Sequence record: DRR723986_5582
Length of the DNA: 34,087 nucleotides
Reading direction: 5' to 3' (one strand)
Shown here: piece after piece, positions 806 through 10,449 of the stretch
Layout: each line of letters opens with the position of its first letter
Position numbering within the stretch: the stretch's first letter is position 1
The notes under the pieces: model-generated
What the model was told of the DNA's origin: nothing
Database searches by the model: none
The model's input: only the letters and a program-made list of their open reading frames with translations
Program-made: the position numbers and the translations under genes

Positions 806-1870
806 CTACTCCTGTTGTGGAATCGGCAGCACCAGGTCGCCCGGCGCCAGGCCTGATACGACTTCCACCAGTGCATCTTCCGAGCGATGTCCCAGCTTGA
901 CGAAGCGGCGCAGCGGTCCGTTGCTCGACGCAATCCAGACCACGTCCAGCTGGCCAACTGAAGCGACTCGGTCGATGGGTATCACCAGTTGGTCGCGCTG
1001 GCCCGCGGGGACCAGCAGTCGCGCGTACATGCCGGGCAGCAGGCCTTTCTCTGAGGGCAGCAAGGCCTTGACCATGAAGCTCCGTGAGCCCGGGTCCGCG
1101 GCCGGCACCAGCTCCTCGATGGTGGCACTCAGGGTGCGTTCCAGGGATGGGATTTCCACGGTGAGTTCCTGCCCTTCCTGCAGCGGGAGGGCGAGCTGTT
1201 CGCGCACGCGCGCCTCGACCCGCAGGGAAAAGGGGTTATACAGCGACAGCAGTTTGGTGCCGGGAGAAGCGGTATCGCCCGGCTCAGCGAAGCGATCCAC
1301 CACGCGCCCGGCAATCGGGGAGCGAATCTGGCTGTAGCTCACCGCTGCCTCAGCTTCCTCAAGGGTGTTCCTGGCCGATGCCAGTCCCGCCGCCAGAGAG
1401 GCCTCGTCAGCCCGTGCCGCATCCCGATCCGCGACTGCGATCAGGCCGCGCTCAAACAGCTGTTCCGCCCGGGCCAGGTTCTGCCGCGCTTCCTGCAGGC
1501 GAGCCTCGACTGAGCGGATCTGTTCCTGCGCCCCCTCGGCCCGCGCCAGCAGGTCGCTGCTTTCCAGCTCCAGCAGCAGCTGTCCCTGCTCTACATAGTC
1601 CCCGGCTCTTACCCGGATAGCGGTGATCCGCGCCAGAATGCGCGAGGAGATGATGGTGGTTTCGCGAGCTTCCACCGAGGCGGGCACCGACTCCTGTGAG
1701 GGTACTGAGCGCGTCAGCACGGCCACTGCATTGTCGCTATTGGCCGGGTTCGCATCGGCGACACCGGGTTGGATCTTGTCGCGGAAATATCCCGCCATCG
1801 CCGCCACCAGCACCAGCAGGATGACGATGGTGACCAGTGGCAGCAGCCAGCCCTTCTTTGCTTTAGCCAT
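806..1870 (-). CDS. RND efflux periplasmic adaptor (membrane fusion protein)
   Basis: Start moved to MAKAKKGW (ATG at 1870, overlapping the permease stop). N-terminal TM anchor, lipoyl half-motifs ([25 protein letters not shown]), alpha-hairpin, LLPGMYAR and [10 protein letters not shown]. Confidence 0.92.
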
Positions 1871-4800
1871 GAGCAGAGTCCTTGTCGAAAACCAGCAGGT
1901 AAACCGTCGGCACGACAACCAGGGTAAAGGCTGTAGAGGCGACGATGCCAAAGATGATAGCCAGCGCCAGGCCGCTGAATACCGGATCGAGGGTGATGAT
2001 CAGGTTGCCTAACAGGGTGGTCCCTGCGGTGAGCAACACCGGCCGCATACGCACGGAGCCGGCCTGCAGCAGGGCGTCGCGGATGCTGGCTCCCTCGTTA
2101 CGGGCCTGGGCTATAAACTCGACCAGGATCAGGGAATTGCGCACCACGATGCCGGCCAGGGCAATCATGCCGATCATTGCAGTGGCGGTGAACAGCACGG
2201 GTTCCGGTGCGCCGGCGATAAGCCGCTCCCCGAACTGATTCATCAGCCAGAAGCCCGGCATGATGCCGATGATGGTCAGGGGAATGGCGGACATGATGAT
2301 CAGTGACAGGGCCGTGGAACTGGTCTGGACACGCAGCACAAAGAAGATCGCCAACAGGGCGAACAGGTAGCCCAGCCCCATGTCGCGGAACACGTCCTTG
2401 GTAATCTTCCATTCACCTTCACCGGTCCAGACGACGTCGGTACCTTCGGGTAGGCTCCAGCCATCCCCGGCACCGCTGGTGAAGAAGGTGCGGGTCCGCC
2501 AGTTGTTCGCAGCCCCCGTTGCCGCGTTCATGTCAGTGTGCACATCGGCGATGATCTCGGCCGGCGTACGACCGTTCAGTTCGGCCATGACGTACACCAC
2601 CGGGCGCAGGTCCTTGCGATGGATCGCCTGGTCTGCCACGCCCTGTTCGAACCGGCCCAGTTCGCCGATTGCGGCCAGCGGCTGGGGTGCTATTTCCAGG
2701 CCCTGGGCGGTACTGGCCTTGGCGACACCGGTGCGGCCCTTGACCAGCAGACGCTGGAAATCATTCTCGGTCGCGCGTTGCCGGGGATCGAGTCGCAGCT
2801 CGATCGGTAGCGGCCGCGCTTCCCGCTCCAGTTGCACGAAGCCGGCCACGTAGCCCGCGTTGGCCATGGCAAGGGTCTGGGCGACATCCTGGCTGGAGAT
2901 GCCCGAGAGCGCGGCTTTCTGTTTGTCTGTGACGAAACGCAGTCGTGCTTTGTCATGTTCGATGGTGGAATCGATTTCCACCACGTGCGCCTCCCGGGAC
3001 AGGCGCCCCATAAGATTGCGCGCGGCGGCCTTCTGAGTGCTGTAGGGGGTGAGGGTATCGCCGTAAATTTCCGCAACGAGCGTACTCAGTACCGGGGGCC
3101 CGGGTGGGACTTCAACCACCTTGATGTGAATACCGTCGCGGTTGAACGGAGCCAGTTGCTCGCGCAGTCGCAATACCAGTCCATGGGACTGGTGGGCGCG
3201 ATCGGCCTTGTCCGCCAGGGTCAGGCGCAGTTCGCCCATGTGCGGGCCCTGGCGCTGGTAGTAGCGGCGTACCATGCCGTTAAAGTCGATGGGGGAGGGA
3301 ATGCCGACGAAGGCGGCTATCGCCTGCACTTCCGGTACCCGGGTCAGTTCGGCACCGAGTTCGCGGGCCAGTGCCGCGGTTTGCTCCAGACTGGCGCTCT
3401 CGGGCATGTCGATCAGTACCTGCACCTCATTCTTGTTGTCGAACGGCAGCAGCTTCAGCGGCACCAGGCGCAGCACCGGGAGCAGGGCAGTCGCGATGAA
3501 CAATGCCAGCACCAGCCAGAGGATGGTTTTTGCCAGCCGCCGGTTATCGAGAATGGGTGCCATGATCCGGGCGTAAATGCCGTGGTCCGTCACTACGTCC
3601 GGTGTATCGCTGCTGGCATTTTCACGGAGCAACCGGCTGGCCAGCCAGGGCGTGACCAGAAAGGCGACCAGGGTGCTGCTGATCACGCTGACGGGCACAT
3701 TGAATGCCATTGGTGCCATGTAGGGACCCATCATGCCGGTGATGAAAGCCAGCGGCAGGAAGGCAACGATGATCGTCACTGTGGACATGATCAGCGGGAT
3801 GCGGATTTCGGCGATGGCCGCGACCACGCGTTCGCGCAGCGGCAGCGTGGTGCGGCTCATGAACCGGGAGATATTGTCGACCCCGGTGATCGGGTCATCC
3901 ACCAGCAGGCCCAGCGAGAGGATCAGGGCAAACAGGGTGACCCGGTTGATGGTATACCCCAGCGCCATGTCCAGGGCCAGGGTGACTCCGTAGCAGATGG
4001 GTACTGCCAGCCCGACCACCAGCGCCTGGCGCCAGCCCAGGAATACGCCGATGAAAATCACTACAGTGAGAATCGCGAAACCCAGGCTGCTGGCCAGGTT
4101 ATTAACTTTCTCGTCGGCGGTCTGGCCATAGTCTCGCAACACTTCGACATGCACTTCCGGGGGCAGGAATTCCGCCTCCAGTCGTGCCATGGTGTCGTGC
4201 ACTTCTTTTGCCACGGCCACCGCGTTGGCGCCGCGTTGCTTGGCTACCGAGATGGCGACCATCGGCAGTGACCCGGTGGCCCCGGCGGGGTGGTCCCCGG
4301 TGAAACTGATCCAGGTGTACTCGTCGGCTTCGGCCGGTCCATCCACGATGCGGGCCACATCCCGAAGGAAGACCGGGACGCCGTCGATGACGTTGACCGC
4401 GAGGTTTTCCAGTTCCTGTATATCGCGAACGACATCACCGCCCTCCAGCACGAGCGATTCATTACCCAGGGTCCAGTTGCCCGCATCGATGAGGATATTG
4501 GAGACCGCCAGCGCCGAGACGATGTCGGCAGCGGTAGTCTTGCGTGCACCGAGGCTCTCGGGATCTATCAGGATGCGCACCGTCCGCGGCCGGCCGCCGG
4601 CGATGTTGACCTCGCTGGTGGCGGGAATGCCCTGCAGCAGGGTGGAGACCTCGTCGGCGAAGCGGCGCAGTTCGTAGTCGCTGTAGCGCTGGGGGTTCTC
4701 GCTCCACAGGCCAAGCAGGACGATGGGTACGTCATCAACCTCGACCGGTCGCAGCATCCAGCGGCTGACTACGGGTGGGACGTGGTCCTGGTTGGAGTAC

Positions 4801-5147
4801 AGCTTGTTGTAGGTATTGAGGATCGAGTCCTCCCGGTCCTGGCCGACGTAGAAACGCAGGGTGACCGCAGCCTGGCCGGTGGCGGTGGAGGAATAGACGT
4901 TTTCCACGCCGGGTATCTGGGCCAGCAGCTTTTCCAGGGGGATAGTGACCTGCCGCTCGACCTGGGTCGCGCTGAGCCCGGGTGCTTCCACCAGCACGTC
5001 CACCATGGGCACGACGATCTGCGGCTCTTCCTCCCGCGGTGTATACAGCAGGGCCAGCAGGCCAGCGGCAAGGCCCAGCAGGAAGATCAGCTGGGGCAGG
5101 CCGCCCTGTAGGGCGTACCGAACTACCCGATCCAGGGGATGGGACAT
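1863..5147 (-). CDS. RND efflux transporter permease (AcrB/AcrD/AcrF superfamily)
   Basis: 1094 aa, two TM bundles with large periplasmic loops; PREEEPQIVVP, GLLVDDPI (TM4 Asp pair), GIVVRNSLILVEF, RMRPVLLT. Confidence 0.95.
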   Translation of the reverse strand: MSHPLDRVVRYALQGGLPQLIFLLGLAAGLLALLYTPREEEPQIVVPMVDVLVEAPGLSATQVERQVTIPLEKLLAQIPGVENVYSSTATGQAAVTLRFYVGQDREDSILNTYNKLYSNQDHVPPVVSRWMLRPVEVDDVPIVLLGLWSENPQRYSDYELRRFADEVSTLLQGIPATSEVNIAGGRPRTVRILIDPESLGARKTTAADIVSALAVSNILIDAGNWTLGNESLVLEGGDVVRDIQELENLAVNVIDGVPVFLRDVARIVDGPAEADEYTWISFTGDHPAGATGSLPMVAISVAKQRGANAVAVAKEVHDTMARLEAEFLPPEVHVEVLRDYGQTADEKVNNLASSLGFAILTVVIFIGVFLGWRQALVVGLAVPICYGVTLALDMALGYTINRVTLFALILSLGLLVDDPITGVDNISRFMSRTTLPLRERVVAAIAEIRIPLIMSTVTIIVAFLPLAFITGMMGPYMAPMAFNVPVSVISSTLVAFLVTPWLASRLLRENASSDTPDVVTDHGIYARIMAPILDNRRLAKTILWLVLALFIATALLPVLRLVPLKLLPFDNKNEVQVLIDMPESASLEQTAALARELGAELTRVPEVQAIAAFVGIPSPIDFNGMVRRYYQRQGPHMGELRLTLADKADRAHQSHGLVLRLREQLAPFNRDGIHIKVVEVPPGPPVLSTLVAEIYGDTLTPYSTQKAAARNLMGRLSREAHVVEIDSTIEHDKARLRFVTDKQKAALSGISSQDVAQTLAMANAGYVAGFVQLEREARPLPIELRLDPRQRATENDFQRLLVKGRTGVAKASTAQGLEIAPQPLAAIGELGRFEQGVADQAIHRKDLRPVVYVMAELNGRTPAEIIADVHTDMNAATGAANNWRTRTFFTSGAGDGWSLPEGTDVVWTGEGEWKITKDVFRDMGLGYLFALLAIFFVLRVQTSSTALSLIIMSAIPLTIIGIMPGFWLMNQFGERLIAGAPEPVLFTATAMIGMIALAGIVVRNSLILVEFIAQARNEGASIRDALLQAGSVRMRPVLLTAGTTLLGNLIITLDPVFSGLALAIIFGIVASTAFTLVVVPTVYLLVFDKDSAHG

Positions 5148-5175
5148 AGACGACTTCCTTTGCGATGGCTCGCGT

Positions 5176-5379
5176 TTACTGGAAAGCGCAGCCCGGCTGC
5201 CGACCCGTGGCCTTCAGGATCAGCGCCAGCGGGCAGAAGCCGGTGAAGGCTGCCTGCAGCATGTTGGCTCCGACGAAGGCGGTAAACCAGAGCCAGTAGG
5301 TGGAGTGAAGCTGGCTCAGCGCCAGGCTGACCAGGATGAATACACCTGCGATTGCGAATACCAGTCTGTCGACGTTCAT
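5176..5379 (-). CDS. DUF2892 / YgaP-like small inner-membrane protein
   Basis: 67 aa with N-terminal DR, two hydrophobic helices and TGFCPL motif; AAGGAG RBS upstream. Confidence 0.85.
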
Positions 5380-5466
5380 GGTGGAATCTCCTTCTGTTGG
5401 TTCAGGTCTTGCGTATCTCGATGTTGGTGTTGGTCAGCGCTACTCTCCCCGGTTCGGTTGAGGCGT

Positions 5467-5772
5467 TCAGGCCGCTTCCTCCGGGCAGTAAATATCGTGC
5501 AAGGTCTCCAGCACAGCCTGCACTTCCGGATTACTCAGGGAATAGTAAATGCGCTGGGCTTCCCGCCGTGTTTCTACCACTCCCGCGTCTCGCAGCCTGG
5601 CCAGGTGCTGGGAAATCGCCGACTGCCCGAGTCCGGTCAGCCGCTCCAGTTCGCCGACGGTGTGCTCCCGGGTCACCAGGGCGCAAAGCACCAGCAAACG
5701 GCTGGGATGGGCCAGGGATTTCAGCAGGCTCGAGGCCTGGGCCGCATTGGCTTGCATCAGGTCAATATCCAT
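5467..5772 (-). CDS. ArsR/SmtB-family repressor, BigR/SqrR/YgaV/HlyU type
   Basis: Start at MDIDLMQ (ATG 5772). LKSLAHPSRLLVLC, HTH QSAISQHLARLR and C-terminal LHDIYC; Cys30 and Cys96 are 66 residues apart. Confidence 0.9.
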   Translation of the reverse strand: MDIDLMQANAAQASSLLKSLAHPSRLLVLCALVTREHTVGELERLTGLGQSAISQHLARLRDAGVVETRREAQRIYYSLSNPEVQAVLETLHDIYCPEEAA

Positions 5773-5810
5773 AACAATGCGATAAGCTTGGGCTTGAAGC
5801 CGACCAGTTA

Positions 5811-5846
5811 ACATTAGATAATTATTATATTAGATTCAACTAATAT
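5811..5846. promoter_or_regulatory. Putative tandem operator of the ArsR-family repressor
   Basis: Perfect inverted repeat ATATTAG-N6-CTAATAT at 5827-5846 plus a degenerate copy ACATTAG-N6-ATTATAT at 5811-5830, in an AT-rich island between divergent genes. Confidence 0.7.
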
Positions 5847-5869
5847 TATTGATCAGGATCATTAAAACT

Positions 5870-6244
5870 ATGCTCACACCCTTACCAGAACTCATTGCCT
5901 CCGCCCGTGCCGGCTTGCGCTGCCTGGACGCCGAAGCCGCCATCCACGAGATCAGGGACAACGGCGGTACCATTGTCGATGTTCGTGAGCCGGTAGAGGT
6001 CAGTGCCACTCCGGCTCCCCATTCGCTGAACATTCCCCGGGGCATCCTGGAGATGAAAGTGATGGATGTGATCACGGATGCCGATCACCCGCTGTATATC
6101 CATTGCGCCACCGGTGGTCGCGCAACCCTCGCCGCAGAGCAATTGCAACGGCTCGGTTATTCCCGGGTTGCGGTCATAACCTGTCCGATCGATGTGGTGT
6201 GCGCCAAGCAGGCCCTGCTGGGCCCTGCCGGAGAGGGCGCCTGA
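5870..6244 (+). CDS. Single-domain rhodanese-like sulfurtransferase
   Basis: ATG at 5870 after a CAGGA RBS; IVDVREPVE, NIPRGILE and active-site loop HCATGGR. Confidence 0.9.
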   Translation: MLTPLPELIASARAGLRCLDAEAAIHEIRDNGGTIVDVREPVEVSATPAPHSLNIPRGILEMKVMDVITDADHPLYIHCATGGRATLAAEQLQRLGYSRVAVITCPIDVVCAKQALLGPAGEGA

Positions 6245-6246
6245 CG

Positions 6247-7026
6247 GTGGCAGCGACCGTAAACAGCGTTCGGGAGGGCCGGGTAACGGTGGTCACCCTT
6301 GCCCGCGCCGCGGTGCGCAACGCCGTTGACGGCGAAACTGCAGCGGCACTGGCTGAGGCGTTTCGCGCCTTCGACCAGGACCCGGACAGTGATGTAGCGG
6401 TGCTCACCGGTGAGCAGGGCCATTTCTGCGCGGGAGCGGACCTGAAAGCGGTTGCCGCGGGCGATGCCGCTAATCGCCTGGACCCTGAAGGAGACGGTCC
6501 GATGGGGCCGTCACGCATGGTACTGGGCAAGCCGGTCATTGCGGCAATCGCCGGTCACGCGGTGGCCGGTGGACTGGAACTGGCCCTGTGGTGTGATCTG
6601 CGCATTGTTGAAGAGAGCGCGGTACTGGGGGTGTTCTGCCGGCGCTGGGGTGTACCACTGGTGGACGGGGGAACCCTGCGGCTGCCGCGGCTGATCGGCC
6701 ACAGCCGGGCCATGGACCTGATTCTTACCGGGCGGCCGGTGGACGCAGCAGAAGCCCTCAGCATCGGTCTTGCCAACCGGGTGGTGCCAGACGGGCAGGC
6801 GCTGCCTGCGGCCCTGGAGTTGGCCCGGCAGCTCAGTCGATTCCCGCAGAACTGCCTGCGTTCCGACCGACTGTCAGCGATCGAGCAGTGGGGTCTGTCG
6901 GAAAGCGATGCGCTGGCCAATGAATTTCAACGCGGTATGCAGGTTATCGAGTCGCGCGAAACCCAGGCCGGGGCCAGCCGCTTCGCTGGCGGTCATGGCC
7001 GGCACGGGGACTTCGGCGACATCTGA
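6247..7026 (+). CDS. Crotonase / enoyl-CoA hydratase-isomerase family protein
   Basis: GTG at 6247 after a GGAGAGG RBS; RNAVD, FCAGADLK, KPVIAAIAGHAVAGGLELALWCD and LILTGRPVDAAEA. Confidence 0.9.
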   Translation: MAATVNSVREGRVTVVTLARAAVRNAVDGETAAALAEAFRAFDQDPDSDVAVLTGEQGHFCAGADLKAVAAGDAANRLDPEGDGPMGPSRMVLGKPVIAAIAGHAVAGGLELALWCDLRIVEESAVLGVFCRRWGVPLVDGGTLRLPRLIGHSRAMDLILTGRPVDAAEALSIGLANRVVPDGQALPAALELARQLSRFPQNCLRSDRLSAIEQWGLSESDALANEFQRGMQVIESRETQAGASRFAGGHGRHGDFGDI

Positions 7027-7540: not shown

Positions 7541-7623
7541 AGCTGCCGTCCTTGTTATCGTTGCCTGATTCTAGCCAAATCGTGTGCGGGCGCACACGCT
7601 CGTAACAGCTTACGGAATAAGGC

Positions 7624-8427
7624 ATGACAACGGATCTGTTGATCGAACCCGATCAAATACCCGGTGACGTTCGGGTACTGGACTGTCGGTTTTCGCTGGC
7701 CGACCCGGCCCAGGGTCGGCGGGCCTACCTCGCCGGCCACATTCCGGGCGCACTGCATGTCGACCTGGAGCAACACCTCTGTGGCCCGGTGGGCCGGCAC
7801 GGTGGGCGCCACCCCTTGCCGCAGCCTGCGGCATTTGCCGCCACCCTTGCCAGTCTCGGGATCGGTCGTGATACCCCGGTGCTTGCCTATGACGACGCGC
7901 GCTTTGCTTTCGCCAGTCGCCTGTGGTGGATGATGCGCAGTTTGGGATACCGCCCACCGCGGCTGCTCAATGGCGGCTATGAGGCATGGCTGGCCAGCGG
8001 CGGTGAGCCGGAGGTGGGAGCAGTTGCGCCGGTTGCGGCGGCGGTGCCCGAGCCCGGGCCCGGCAACTACAAAGGGGTCTGCGATATTGAGGGCCTGCGT
8101 CAGTTACAGGAGGCGGGCGCCTGGTTGGTTGATGCGCGCGAATCCCGCCGCTACGACGGTATTGAGGAACCGATTGATCCGGTTGCCGGCCACATCCCCG
8201 GGGCGATTAACCGACCCTGGCAGGCGGTTACCGATTCTGAGGCTCGCTTACTGGACAGCAACAGCCTGCGCGCGCACTGGCACGATGCGCTGGAGGCGGA
8301 GCAGTTGGTGGTCTACTGCGGCTCCGGCGTTACCGCCTGCGTCAACCTGTTTTCCCTGGCAGCGCTGGGTCGCGATGATGCGATGCTGTATTCAGGTAGC
8401 TGGAGTGACTGGTGTACGTACCTCTGA
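7624..8427 (+). CDS. sseA: Tandem-domain sulfurtransferase (thiosulfate/3-mercaptopyruvate sulfurtransferase, SseA type)
   Basis: VLDCRF, GHIPGA (twice), GRHPLP, catalytic YCGSGVTA and C-terminal signature YSGSWSDW. Confidence 0.88.
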   Translation: MTTDLLIEPDQIPGDVRVLDCRFSLADPAQGRRAYLAGHIPGALHVDLEQHLCGPVGRHGGRHPLPQPAAFAATLASLGIGRDTPVLAYDDARFAFASRLWWMMRSLGYRPPRLLNGGYEAWLASGGEPEVGAVAPVAAAVPEPGPGNYKGVCDIEGLRQLQEAGAWLVDARESRRYDGIEEPIDPVAGHIPGAINRPWQAVTDSEARLLDSNSLRAHWHDALEAEQLVVYCGSGVTACVNLFSLAALGRDDAMLYSGSWSDWCTYL

Positions 8428-10449
8428 GGCAGCTGCCTGGGCCCGATACCAGATCGGTGACGACCAGGCCCGTTCCTGGAGAGTTTTTGGCAGGTCCGAG
8501 CGCGGTTCTTCACCGGCGCGGATAGCATCCCAGGTCGACCAGCGGCAGGTGGGGTTCTCCAGCACCCGCACGTAGTAGAAAGCATCGGCCGCGGGGTCGA
8601 AATCCGGGTCACGCCACAGGGTCTTCAGTTCCGCATCGCCGATGCCGGCGGTAATCGAGCAGTCAGTGAGACTGACGCGAGCACCGTTGTCAGGGCAACG
8701 GTGGGTGTTGCTGTCCGGGTTTGCGCCGTCCGAGCAGGCGACGTCAAAGACCTGTTCGCGATGGTCGCCGCTGTCCAGCCAGCCCTTGATAACCTGCACC
8801 CGCTGCAGCGGCGTGCCCTCGGTATCGGCGCGGGCCCAGACCAGGAAGGCGGGACTGGCCTCCAGCGGGCCGTCGAGTTCACCGCCCATGACAGTGGCGG
8901 AGTCGTAGGCCAGACGTACCAGGTCGGGGCGATCCAGATCGGCCTGTTGCAGGTTTGCGCCGGCAAAGAAGCGTACCTGGATGCGCGGTCCCGTGGTGGC
9001 AAAGGTTTCCTTGCGGCGGAAGGCGTCATAGATCGACTCGCGGGTATTTTCCTCGGCCCAGACGCCGGTCAGCCCCGACGCCGACCAGTACTCGAAGGAG
9101 GAGGTCTCCATATAGGTTTTGCCATCGACTTCCTTGATCATTTCCGGGTCCAGCAGGCGCGCGACGGTACCGTTGAGAAAGGACGCGGGAATCGAGCCGC
9201 GTGCCTCGGCGTCGCCATCCAGCAGGCCAACCTTGGAAAAGTAGTTGGCTTCATCCAGTGAGGCCGCGCCGGTATGGGTGTCGCTGGCGCCGACCAGGCC
9301 GAAGCGATAGGGGTTGAACACATCGCCCTCTGCCAGTTGCAGCCCGCGCAGGTAAGCGTCCCGGACGTAGCCGCCGGCGGGTTCGCTGTACAGTTTGGTG
9401 GCCACCCGGTAGGGGGCGATCTCGAAGTCAGCCCACTCATCGTTTTTCGACAACAGCGGGTGGGTGTCCGAGGTGCCTTTGACCTGGGTGATCTCCACCA
9501 GCGGCTCATTGCGCAGGCGCTGTTCGCCGTAGGCGTCGTCCAGGGGGTCGCCTGCCCAGTCCACCAGCTTGAACATCTGGCCGTTGGAGCCATTGGAATT
9601 GTGCGGGATGGCGAGGCTCTCAACGCCCTGTTCCCGCAGCGTGTCCATCCAGTCCCAGAGACCTTCGGGGTTCTGCGAGTTCAGGCGCGAGAAGGGCGCT
9701 GCCGGGAGGCGGTCACTGCTGCGGAAAATCACGTTGCGATGCAGGTTGCCCCGATCATCGGTCGATGACGTGTATTCGTAGGCTGCAAAGGTGGTGAACT
9801 GCCCCGGCGTATAGGCGGCATCGGCCGCCATGACGGTATCGCGCCAGGTATTGCGTGACACCTCGGCTACCGTTTCCGGGTCGATCGAGCCGTCGCGGAT
9901 CCCGGCCAATACCCCGGGAACAAAACCGAAGAATGCCTGCGACCTGGCCGGCGAACTCCACTCGTTCATGTTGCCGGGGTCGTTGATATTGTGCAGTGGT
10001 TCGGCGACCGGGTAGCGGGAAAAACGGGTGCGGGTGTCAGCCGCTTCCTTGACCAGGCCGAGAAACATGGCGTGGTCGGTGACGGCATAAAAGTCCAGGG
10101 GTCGCTGCAGCTGCATCTCGAAACCGCCGGGGTGTTGCAGGGGCATGCCGCGGGCGTAACGGTAGGCATCCTCCGGTGATGCCAGGGTGCCGAACACGTA
10201 GGCATCGAATGAGTTGGCCGTGTGCACGTGCAGGTCGCCAAAGTAGGCCCGCCGCTCGGGTTCTGGTGGGGGCCGGAACTGGATGATCCCCGTATCCGTC
10301 GGCAGCAGGCTGTTGTTGCCCGAGGCAGCGCCGGCGATGCCTACAGTGGGATTGGACTGGGCAGTGCGCAGTTGCTCGGTGTCGCTGCCACAGGCTGAGA
10401 CGAGCAGGCCGGCCAGCAGGCAGGCAGCGGGAATCGCGATACGGGTCAT
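8392..10449 (-). CDS. DUF3604 domain-containing lipoprotein (PHP-like metallohydrolase fold)
   Basis: 685 aa; lipobox LVSAC; YFGDLHVHT, LDFYAVTDH, LHRNVIF, IPHNSN, SDTH and QERAWSSPIWY. Confidence 0.85.
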   Translation of the reverse strand: MTRIAIPAACLLAGLLVSACGSDTEQLRTAQSNPTVGIAGAASGNNSLLPTDTGIIQFRPPPEPERRAYFGDLHVHTANSFDAYVFGTLASPEDAYRYARGMPLQHPGGFEMQLQRPLDFYAVTDHAMFLGLVKEAADTRTRFSRYPVAEPLHNINDPGNMNEWSSPARSQAFFGFVPGVLAGIRDGSIDPETVAEVSRNTWRDTVMAADAAYTPGQFTTFAAYEYTSSTDDRGNLHRNVIFRSSDRLPAAPFSRLNSQNPEGLWDWMDTLREQGVESLAIPHNSNGSNGQMFKLVDWAGDPLDDAYGEQRLRNEPLVEITQVKGTSDTHPLLSKNDEWADFEIAPYRVATKLYSEPAGGYVRDAYLRGLQLAEGDVFNPYRFGLVGASDTHTGAASLDEANYFSKVGLLDGDAEARGSIPASFLNGTVARLLDPEMIKEVDGKTYMETSSFEYWSASGLTGVWAEENTRESIYDAFRRKETFATTGPRIQVRFFAGANLQQADLDRPDLVRLAYDSATVMGGELDGPLEASPAFLVWARADTEGTPLQRVQVIKGWLDSGDHREQVFDVACSDGANPDSNTHRCPDNGARVSLTDCSITAGIGDAELKTLWRDPDFDPAADAFYYVRVLENPTCRWSTWDAIRAGEEPRSDLPKTLQERAWSSPIWYRAQAAASEVRTPVTPAT

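Follow-up and report, generated by a model that had tools for sequence, protein, structure and literature searches.

Here, we describe a five-gene locus at positions 806..6244 of a 34,087-nt stretch of DNA (record DRR723986_5582; the whole stretch, at its full length, is called the window throughout). Judging from its sequence and from comparison with published systems, this locus is probably a sulfide/sulfane-sulfur stress module, in which a unit resembling ygaV-ygaP of Escherichia coli is joined to a permease-adaptor pair that belongs to a distinct family of resistance-nodulation-division (RND) pumps. The gene content, the homology of the products, the conserved cysteines, a conserved operator motif and a conserved neighbourhood are established below.

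In the locus, a rhodanese gene is divergent from four genes lying on the opposite strand, which encode, in the order of reading, an ArsR-family repressor, a small DUF2892 protein, an RND permease and its periplasmic adaptor (membrane fusion protein, MFP). The arsR and DUF2892 genes are separated by 87 nt (5380-5466) and the DUF2892 and permease genes by 28 nt (5148-5175), while the reading frames of the permease and the adaptor, of which the permease comes first, overlap by 8 nt (1863-1870). The divergent spacer of 97 nt (5773-5869) has a G+C content of 29.9%, compared to 63.3% in the window. A preliminary description of this DNA, made from the letters alone, had listed the same five genes, intervals, overlap and AT-rich spacer, and all of these proved exact; its assignments to the ArsR, DUF2892, RND, MFP and rhodanese families were likewise confirmed by Pfam and NCBIfam models. 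As for the gene starts (Table 1), the adaptor begins at an ATG at 1870 (MAKAKKGW), internal to a longer open reading frame (ORF) at 806-1951; an alternative upstream ATG of arsR at 5814 would give an ORF of 115 aa; and the rhodanese ORF as listed begins earlier, with a TTG at 5849.

Table 1. Features of the locus and of the gene that follows it in the window
Feature	Position	Strand	Basis
RND periplasmic adaptor (MFP), 354 aa	806..1870	-	ORF; HlyD_D23 3e-20; N-terminal membrane anchor
RND permease, 1094 aa	1863..5147	-	ORF; Pfam ACR_tran 3.3e-143
DUF2892 / YgaP-like transmembrane protein, 67 aa	5176..5379	-	PF11127 7.3e-14
Two-Cys ArsR-family repressor, 101 aa from MDIDL	5467..5772	-	HTH_5 PF01022 1.8e-14
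Candidate operator, imperfect 10-6-10 inverted repeat	5824..5849	.	Inverted-repeat search, divergent spacer
Single-domain rhodanese, 124 aa (MLTPLPE...)	5870..6244	+	PF00581 1.4e-8
Crotonase/enoyl-CoA hydratase family gene, GTG start	6247..7026	+	PRK08259 412.9 bits, cutoff 273

The repressor carries exactly two cysteines, Cys30 (LLVLC) and Cys96 (IYC), which lie 66 residues apart when numbered from MDIDL, one in the LxxLC helix and the other near the C-terminus; the translation thus bears out what had been claimed for this pair. Its winged helix-turn-helix domain was recognized not only by Pfam but also by the HTH_metalloreg model NF033788 (89.7 bits, cutoff 55). The same 66-residue spacing separates C42 from C108 in BigR and C41 from C107 in SqrR. 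The best solved structure for the repressor was YgaV (3cuo, 101.7 bits), followed by HlyU, by BigR (3pqj) and then by 6o8k-6o8o, which we take to be Rhodobacter capsulatus SqrR. The cysteines of sHdrR, Cys50 and Cys116, are spaced in the same way (PMC12423496). YgaV of E. coli K-12 is 54% identical to the window repressor over 93 residues, and both cysteines are aligned (Cys31 and Cys98 of YgaV). The top NCBIfam model was the BigR equivalog NF040642, yet its score of 103.2 bits lies below the cutoff of 155. Since the repressor stays under this cutoff and nevertheless aligns at both cysteines, it is a two-Cys regulator but not BigR proper; on alignment evidence, we place it in the YgaV/SqrR/BigR/HlyU branch, with YgaV as the closest characterised member, and reject the name BigR. 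The designation as a BigR/SqrR-type repressor made in the preliminary description therefore stands as far as the two-Cys branch is concerned, while the nearest characterised relative is another protein than the one it named first. In YgaV, a tetrasulfide is formed between Cys31 and Cys98, and the ygaVP operon is derepressed by sulfide (PMC9774250). We regard it as highly probable that the window repressor senses reactive sulfur, too. A paper on selenite in P. putida was dropped as irrelevant to this regulator, the 'SqrR' described there being a different, sigma-54 protein.

A candidate operator was found in the divergent spacer. Its core, ATTAGATTCAACTAAT at 5829-5844, has the pattern ATTAG-N6-CTAAT and is the single match to this palindrome in the whole window, where 0.19 would be expected. 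An exact TATAAT on the minus strand (5829-5824) falls within one arm of the inverted repeat. We also looked for the shorter form TTAG-N6-CTAA in the loci that carry relatives of the permease (described below). It occurs within 259 nt upstream of 14 of the 20 two-Cys ArsR genes in these loci and upstream of none of the four ArsR genes that lack the first cysteine, with 30 sites in total across all 1.217 Mb. The window has one such site; paired sites 16 bp apart are seen in L007 (7604/7620), L009 (1980/1996) and L017 (7598/7614), and L040 bears an extra operator-like site at 7569, between its ArsR and DUF2892 genes.

The rhodanese and the DUF2892 protein correspond to the two parts of E. coli YgaP. 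The rhodanese, whose six-residue active-site loop is CATGGR, matches solved rhodaneses and was aligned with 21 rhodaneses from the related loci; as its translation, judged by eye, has no N-terminal hydrophobic stretch, the enzyme is probably cytoplasmic. A subgroup of these rhodaneses (the window, L001, L003, L010, L015, L017 and L018) has two more semi-conserved cysteines near the C-terminus (TC...D..VC), which might constitute a second redox pair. The DUF2892 protein shows two hydrophobic segments in the hydropathy profile, carries Cys49 in an FCP motif and a second cysteine at residue 64, and matches the structure of the YgaP transmembrane (TM) domain, 2mpn. Cys49 aligns with Cys159 of E. 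coli YgaP, and the cysteine of the (F/W)C(P/L) motif is kept in 22 of 23 DUF2892 copies found beside permease relatives. The window rhodanese aligns to the rhodanese half of YgaP and the DUF2892 protein to its C-terminal, two-helix membrane half, so that both YgaP domains are present, although not in one polypeptide: they are encoded by separate genes on opposite strands. As the two proteins make up the two halves of YgaP, the locus can be described as a ygaVP-like unit with an RND pair inserted. A fused rhodanese-DUF2892 protein of the YgaP type, with a Cys-rich tail (GGCCCG), is encoded in L075 (11406-11990, a Tepidisphaerales metagenome-assembled genome), 25 nt past the permease gene.

The Pfam model ACR_tran covers the whole of the permease (479 bits). 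Its best NCBIfam model reaches only 415 bits compared to a cutoff of 1250, the best solved structure scores 217 bits, and its identity to AcrB is 23%; by these sequence measures, it is a member of a distinct, unnamed RND family. The adaptor is recognized without difficulty (TIGR01730 RND_mfp, 188.9 bits, cutoff 94.9), and of the 79 sources that were searched, namely the 78 loci described below and the window itself, 71 have an MFP relative next to the permease. We aligned 71 members of the permease clade. The aspartate pair of TM4 (D417/D418) and the arginine of TM11 (Arg1033), which are equivalent to Asp407, Asp408 and Arg971 of AcrB, are retained in the family, whereas Lys940 of AcrB is replaced by arginine (Arg1003) in all 71 members. 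In addition, the family has invariant or nearly invariant residues of its own, namely E39, E40, D139, K303, R338, R402, K572, R627, R632 and H655, and equally conserved methionines at 472, 473, 477, 991 and 994, with a GMMGPYMAPM motif in the region of residues 472-480. Going by the topology of AcrB, many of these residues presumably lie near the membrane-periplasm interface. Most of the signature, which is unlike both AcrB and CusA, is retained in relatives of only ~35% identity encoded on plasmids and chromids; M473, M477, M991 and the arginine at the Lys940 position are present in most of those aligned.

In order to see in what company such permeases occur, we scanned one genome per species and obtained 78 loci whose permeases share 42-76% identity with that of the window, from the best 80 of 673 confirmed matches. 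They span Gammaproteobacteria, Desulfobacterota, Myxococcota, Planctomycetota, Verrucomicrobiota, Sumerlaeota and others. To find the small gene families, every ORF of 40 aa or more was compared with sequence profiles, and a locus with at least 3 kb of sequence on both sides of the pump (n = 54) was counted as full-context. Within 3 kb of the pump, 35 of the 78 loci have a sulfur gene of any kind, 22 a DUF2892 gene, 20 a rhodanese gene, 17 a two-Cys ArsR gene and 8 all three; in the full-context loci the respective numbers are 29, 20, 18, 15 and 7. The co-occurrence of the permease clade with DUF2892, rhodanese and two-Cys ArsR genes, by which the preliminary description had proposed to check its reading, is borne out, a sulfur gene of at least one kind being present in 29 of 54 full-context loci. 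The first kilobase from the pump (139 kb of sequence) contains 20 ArsR, 18 DUF2892 and 18 rhodanese hits, while the bins at 4-8 kb (373 kb) contain none at all, every hit falling within 4 kb. As relatives of the three small families gather in the kilobase next to the pump and are absent at 4-8 kb, the arrangement exceeds what chance would produce. Thirteen related loci carry a two-Cys ArsR gene on the same strand as the permease gene and 0-83 nt upstream of it. We consider it very likely that the pump belongs to the regulon of the repressor.

The DUF2892 gene is found in the orders ArsR-DUF2892-RND-MFP and MFP-RND-DUF2892. In a FastTree phylogeny of 72 permeases rooted with AcrB, the fewest changes of state, counted over 53 full-context rows, were at least 12 for DUF2892, 7 for rhodanese and 4 for two-Cys ArsR; DUF2892 is therefore the most phylogenetically scattered partner of the pump. 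Further recurring neighbours are a sulfide:quinone oxidoreductase (SQR)-like enzyme (5 loci), a Blh-like persulfide dioxygenase (3 loci), fusions of CoA-disulfide reductase and rhodanese (3 loci) and DsrE2 (2 loci). An oxidoreductase of the TIGR03169 type ('N-terminal to SelD'; 352.6 bits, cutoff 310) lies by the permease in L036 (5607-6830), L037 and L058; near the permeases of L006 and L011 there is a gene for a YHS domain (seleno)protein (6939-7409 in L011). These neighbours are a hint that selenium, and not sulfur, may be handled by some members of the family.

A second, independent set was provided by NCBI-annotated plasmid and chromid records, 145 of which encode a relative; ten, drawn from the top 30, were inspected. 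Beside the pump, seven have DUF2892, five ArsR, four an SQR-like oxidoreductase and three rhodanese, and two (the Polaromonas and Flammeovirga records) have no sulfur-linked gene annotated there. Linkage of the pump to DUF2892, rhodanese and SQR is thus seen in Gamma- and Alphaproteobacteria, Desulfobacterota, Planctomycetota and Cyanobacteria. In two of the relatives of ~35% identity, L082 (Paracoccus versutus pTAV3) and L090 (Agrobacterium salinitolerans), the DUF2892 gene immediately precedes the adaptor gene, and a gene pair for an FAD/NAD(P)-binding oxidoreductase and DUF5368 is close by; the Paracoccus locus further encodes another DUF2892 protein along with ArsR, an MBL-fold hydrolase and a TIGR01244 sulfurtransferase.

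Experimental data exist for a similar operon. Azospira suillum PS carries Dsui_3440 (DUF2892)-3441 (RND)-3442 (SQR)-3443 (MFP), and sulfide raises the log2 RNA-seq level of the RND gene from about 0.8-2.3 to 8.2-9.6 (PMC5358917, 2017). In its BarSeq experiments, the mean fitness values without stressor, at 1 mM H2S and with an H2S spike were -0.76, -2.21 and -2.69 for the permease, -0.81, -2.12 and -2.63 for the adaptor, -0.75, -0.86 and -1.17 for SQR, and -0.08, -0.15 and -0.33 for DUF2892. Induction by H2S and H2S-dependent fitness are in print for an operon of similar architecture. The pairing of regulator and pump is in print as well: according to section 2.1 and Table S1 of PMC12423496 (2025), genes of two-Cys, sulfane-sulfur-responsive ArsR regulators often adjoin RND transporter genes, and such cases are given for about a dozen organisms, the table including the SqrR of R. 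capsulatus, Halorhodospira halophila, Acidithiobacillus thiooxidans and others, as well as Rhodopila globiformis with a rhodanese and Rhodoplanes elegans with a sulfurtransferase. The RND pump is thus not a new transport arm. In the literature searched, on the other hand, we found no description of the linkage between DUF2892 and the pump, the Azospira paper being the only match for DUF2892 together with RND, and the parts seen of the literature on RND pumps with sulfane sulfur or rhodanese contained no characterisation of such a pump. Since both the ArsR-RND pairing and an H2S-responsive DUF2892-RND operon have been published, the locus is of a kind that has been noticed but remains uncharacterised. 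The apparent novelty concerns DUF2892, which is more persistent than any other partner of this distinct RND family, itself marked by a conserved signature of its own.

A mechanism consistent with these findings may be proposed. A dimer of the repressor would occupy the palindrome ATTAG-N6-CTAAT, and since this overlaps the -10 region of the putative divergent promoters, it would sit at both of them. Persulfides or polysulfides would bridge Cys30 and Cys96, as the tetrasulfide does in YgaV and SqrR, and the repressor would be released, switching on the rhodanese gene on one strand and the arsR-DUF2892-RND-MFP genes on the other. The pump, together with an outer-membrane channel encoded elsewhere, would expel toxic species derived from sulfide from the interface of the inner membrane and the periplasm, while the rhodanese and the conserved cysteine of the DUF2892 protein would handle sulfane sulfur at the cytoplasmic face of the membrane. 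What we infer concerns repression and derepression in the host, the joint transcription of the genes, the way in which transport runs and, most of all, the identity of the cargo. That the role of the pump is protection from sulfide or sulfane-sulfur stress seems fairly probable to us; that the cargo is sulfane sulfur itself is a tentative proposal, to which we give rather less than even chances. A bolder version, in which DUF2892 is a dedicated small partner of the RND family, the cytoplasmic rhodanese loads its conserved interfacial cysteine with sulfane sulfur and the pump takes zero-valent sulfur (polysulfide or S8) out of the membrane and expels it through an outer-membrane channel, we hold to be unlikely. 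A predicted complex of the DUF2892 protein with permease fragments (TM2-7 and TM8-12) scored 0.00 in a run made without custom alignments, a set-up unlike the one for which the tool was calibrated, so that the score speaks neither for nor against contact.

Several observations weigh against the reading as a sulfur-stress module. The sample of loci was top-scoring rather than random, and the profiles of the gene families had proteins of the window itself as their seeds. The nearest genome relatives of the permease, L006 (76%) and L002 (74%), have no sulfur genes nearby, and 25 of the 54 full-context loci have none within 3 kb. In 8-13 loci, a histidine kinase and a LuxR-type response regulator take the place of ArsR (their gene clusters span 13 and 12 loci, respectively), which suggests that this pair provides alternative control where the two-Cys ArsR is absent; it is found in L004, L007, L020, L040, L049, L050, L052, L053, L055, L065, L066 and L076. 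The regulator, as stated above, fails the BigR equivalog cutoff. The 34-kb window contains no outer-membrane factor gene; among the relatives, in favour of tripartite export, such a gene lies beside the pump in 17 of the 78 loci, and three of the ten plasmid loci have one as well. Moreover, the Azospira and Rhodobacter pumps are likened to that of the window by gene order and annotation and not by their permease sequences, deletion of the Azospira operon left the rate of H2S oxidation unchanged, and the authors of that study favour metal-sulfide export or a general stress response (PMC5358917).

This last view leads to the strongest of the alternatives, namely that the cargo consists of thiophilic metals, metalloids or metal-sulfide complexes (Cu, Ag, Cd, organotin, Se/Te species), which turn toxic or are mobilised in the presence of sulfide, and that the regulator merely reports this condition. 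The Azospira authors take H2S-induced RND pumps for metal-sulfide exporters, and the first report on YgaV, cited in PMC9774250, was of a repressor responding to tributyltin. The invariant methionines lie near the periplasmic ends of TM6 (M472/M473/M477) and TM10 (M991/M994) and, with the many charged residues, are unlike a greasy multidrug pocket; the selenium-linked neighbours of a few loci point in the same direction. However, the CusA/CzcA model TIGR00914 gives only 218 bits against a cutoff of 701. We also compared 11 methionine sites of CusA, each of which is a methionine in the E. coli sequence. Only one of them aligns with a methionine of the window permease, and that methionine is not conserved in the family, so a CusA-like metal relay was rejected. 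Furthermore, the only cysteines of the regulator are the two of the persulfide type, and the neighbours that recur are sulfane-sulfur enzymes and not metal chaperones or sensors. We judge the metal explanation improbable.

It might also be supposed that an ordinary hydrophobe or multidrug pump has come under a reactive-sulfur repressor, in the manner of MarR/MexR-controlled pumps, its cargo being organic electrophiles, thiol conjugates or membrane-damaging compounds. Multidrug-type RND permeases are indeed the top matches among both NCBIfam models and solved structures, the TM4 aspartate pair and the TM11 arginine of AcrB are retained, and sulfane sulfur has been reported to induce efflux genes under MarR-family control. 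Nevertheless, every multidrug model scores far under its cutoff, and the signature of the family is of polar character and is retained at identities ranging from 35% to 89%. As DUF2892, rhodanese and SQR stay linked to the pump across phyla, a generalist pump is hard to reconcile with the data, and we rate this explanation as slightly less probable still than metal export. Finally, incidental adjacency, with ArsR, DUF2892 and rhodanese forming a self-contained ygaVP-like unit and the RND-MFP pair under separate control, is very improbable: it would agree with the lack of sulfur genes near the pumps of L006 and L002, and a scan of the window for promoters and terminators, which found sites no commoner than in shuffled sequence, is uninformative on this point, but the four genes share one strand with short intervals and an overlap, two-Cys ArsR genes directly precede the permease gene in related loci, and the sulfur-gene hits crowd into the kilobase next to the pump, with none at 4-8 kb.

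The rest of the window looks like ordinary chromosome, with rimO, gyrA, pheA, aroA, cmk, rpsA, scpAB and pdxJ. Permease relatives of 78-84% identity bear names such as Halioglobus, Haliea and Seongchinamella, and from these the host is taken to be a Halieaceae-like marine gammaproteobacterium. Downstream of the rhodanese gene, the GTG of the crotonase gene comes 2 nt past the rhodanese stop and is preceded by GGAGAGGG; given this distance, the two genes are probably co-transcribed. As a conserved member of the module, the crotonase was ruled out, having no relative in any of the 78 loci. At a distance of 1.4 kb from the module, a second rhodanese gene is found at 7624-8427 (+), whose tandem-domain product resembles 3-mercaptopyruvate sulfurtransferase (PRK11493, 125 bits, cutoff 250); the 3' end of this gene overlaps convergently, by 36 nt, with the end of a DUF3604 gene (685 aa, 8392-10449).

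The disposal of the toxic sulfane sulfur that bacteria produce when they oxidise sulfide has been clarified only in part; sulfite/thiosulfate exporters (TauE) and transporters of the YeeE/PmpAB type are the exits known so far. A widespread RND family that is associated with DUF2892, rhodanese, SQR and persulfide sensors, together with the H2S-specific fitness effect published for the similar pump of one organism, indicates a way out of the cell, or a means of protection, that has gone unstudied. Definition of its cargo would give a function to DUF2892/YgaP-TM proteins and to the RND genes that lie by SqrR-type regulators, and would be relevant to the way in which marine, sediment and host-associated bacteria tolerate sulfide. 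If zero-valent sulfur were indeed exported, no RND pump before this one would have been shown to export inorganic sulfur, and bacteria from Proteobacteria to Planctomycetota would share a general route by which sulfur is released outside the cell and sulfide is tolerated. The window offers a clean and compact example, with a recognisable candidate operator.

In comparison with known systems, the AcrAB-TolC, MexAB-OprM and CusCBA pumps share with the window the 12-TM architecture of the RND permease and a partner adaptor, and the AcrB-type proton relay is kept in its aspartate pair and TM11 arginine, with the lysine exchanged for arginine. Unlike these systems, the window pump has its own polar and methionine signature and is encoded in the order permease-adaptor; the methionine relay of CusA is absent. 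The survey of SqrR, BigR, sHdrR and SoxR (PMC12423496) found, as we do here, two-Cys ArsR genes beside RND genes. However, it began from the regulator, the pumps are uncharacterised in the parts available to us, DUF2892 does not occur in its supplements, Halieaceae, to which the window host is assigned, are absent from its list, and the RND genes are likened by adjacency and not by permease sequence. In the Azospira operon, as in the window, DUF2892, RND and MFP genes stand together, and there H2S induces the operon and reveals the fitness contribution of the pump; it differs in that the SQR gene lies inside and that, in the parts of PMC5358917 available to us, ArsR is unreported. The closest counterpart of the regulatory part remains E. 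coli ygaV-ygaP, with a highly similar repressor whose sensing cysteines are aligned and with a rhodanese and a DUF2892 domain bearing the conserved cysteine, although YgaP is one polypeptide, whereas in the window its halves are split between genes and an RND permease and adaptor are inserted. The operator described for SqrR and YgaV, the latter of which autoregulates, is ATTC-N8-GAAT (PMC9774250); its inner bases differ from those of ATTAG-N6-CTAAT, but both span 16 bp.

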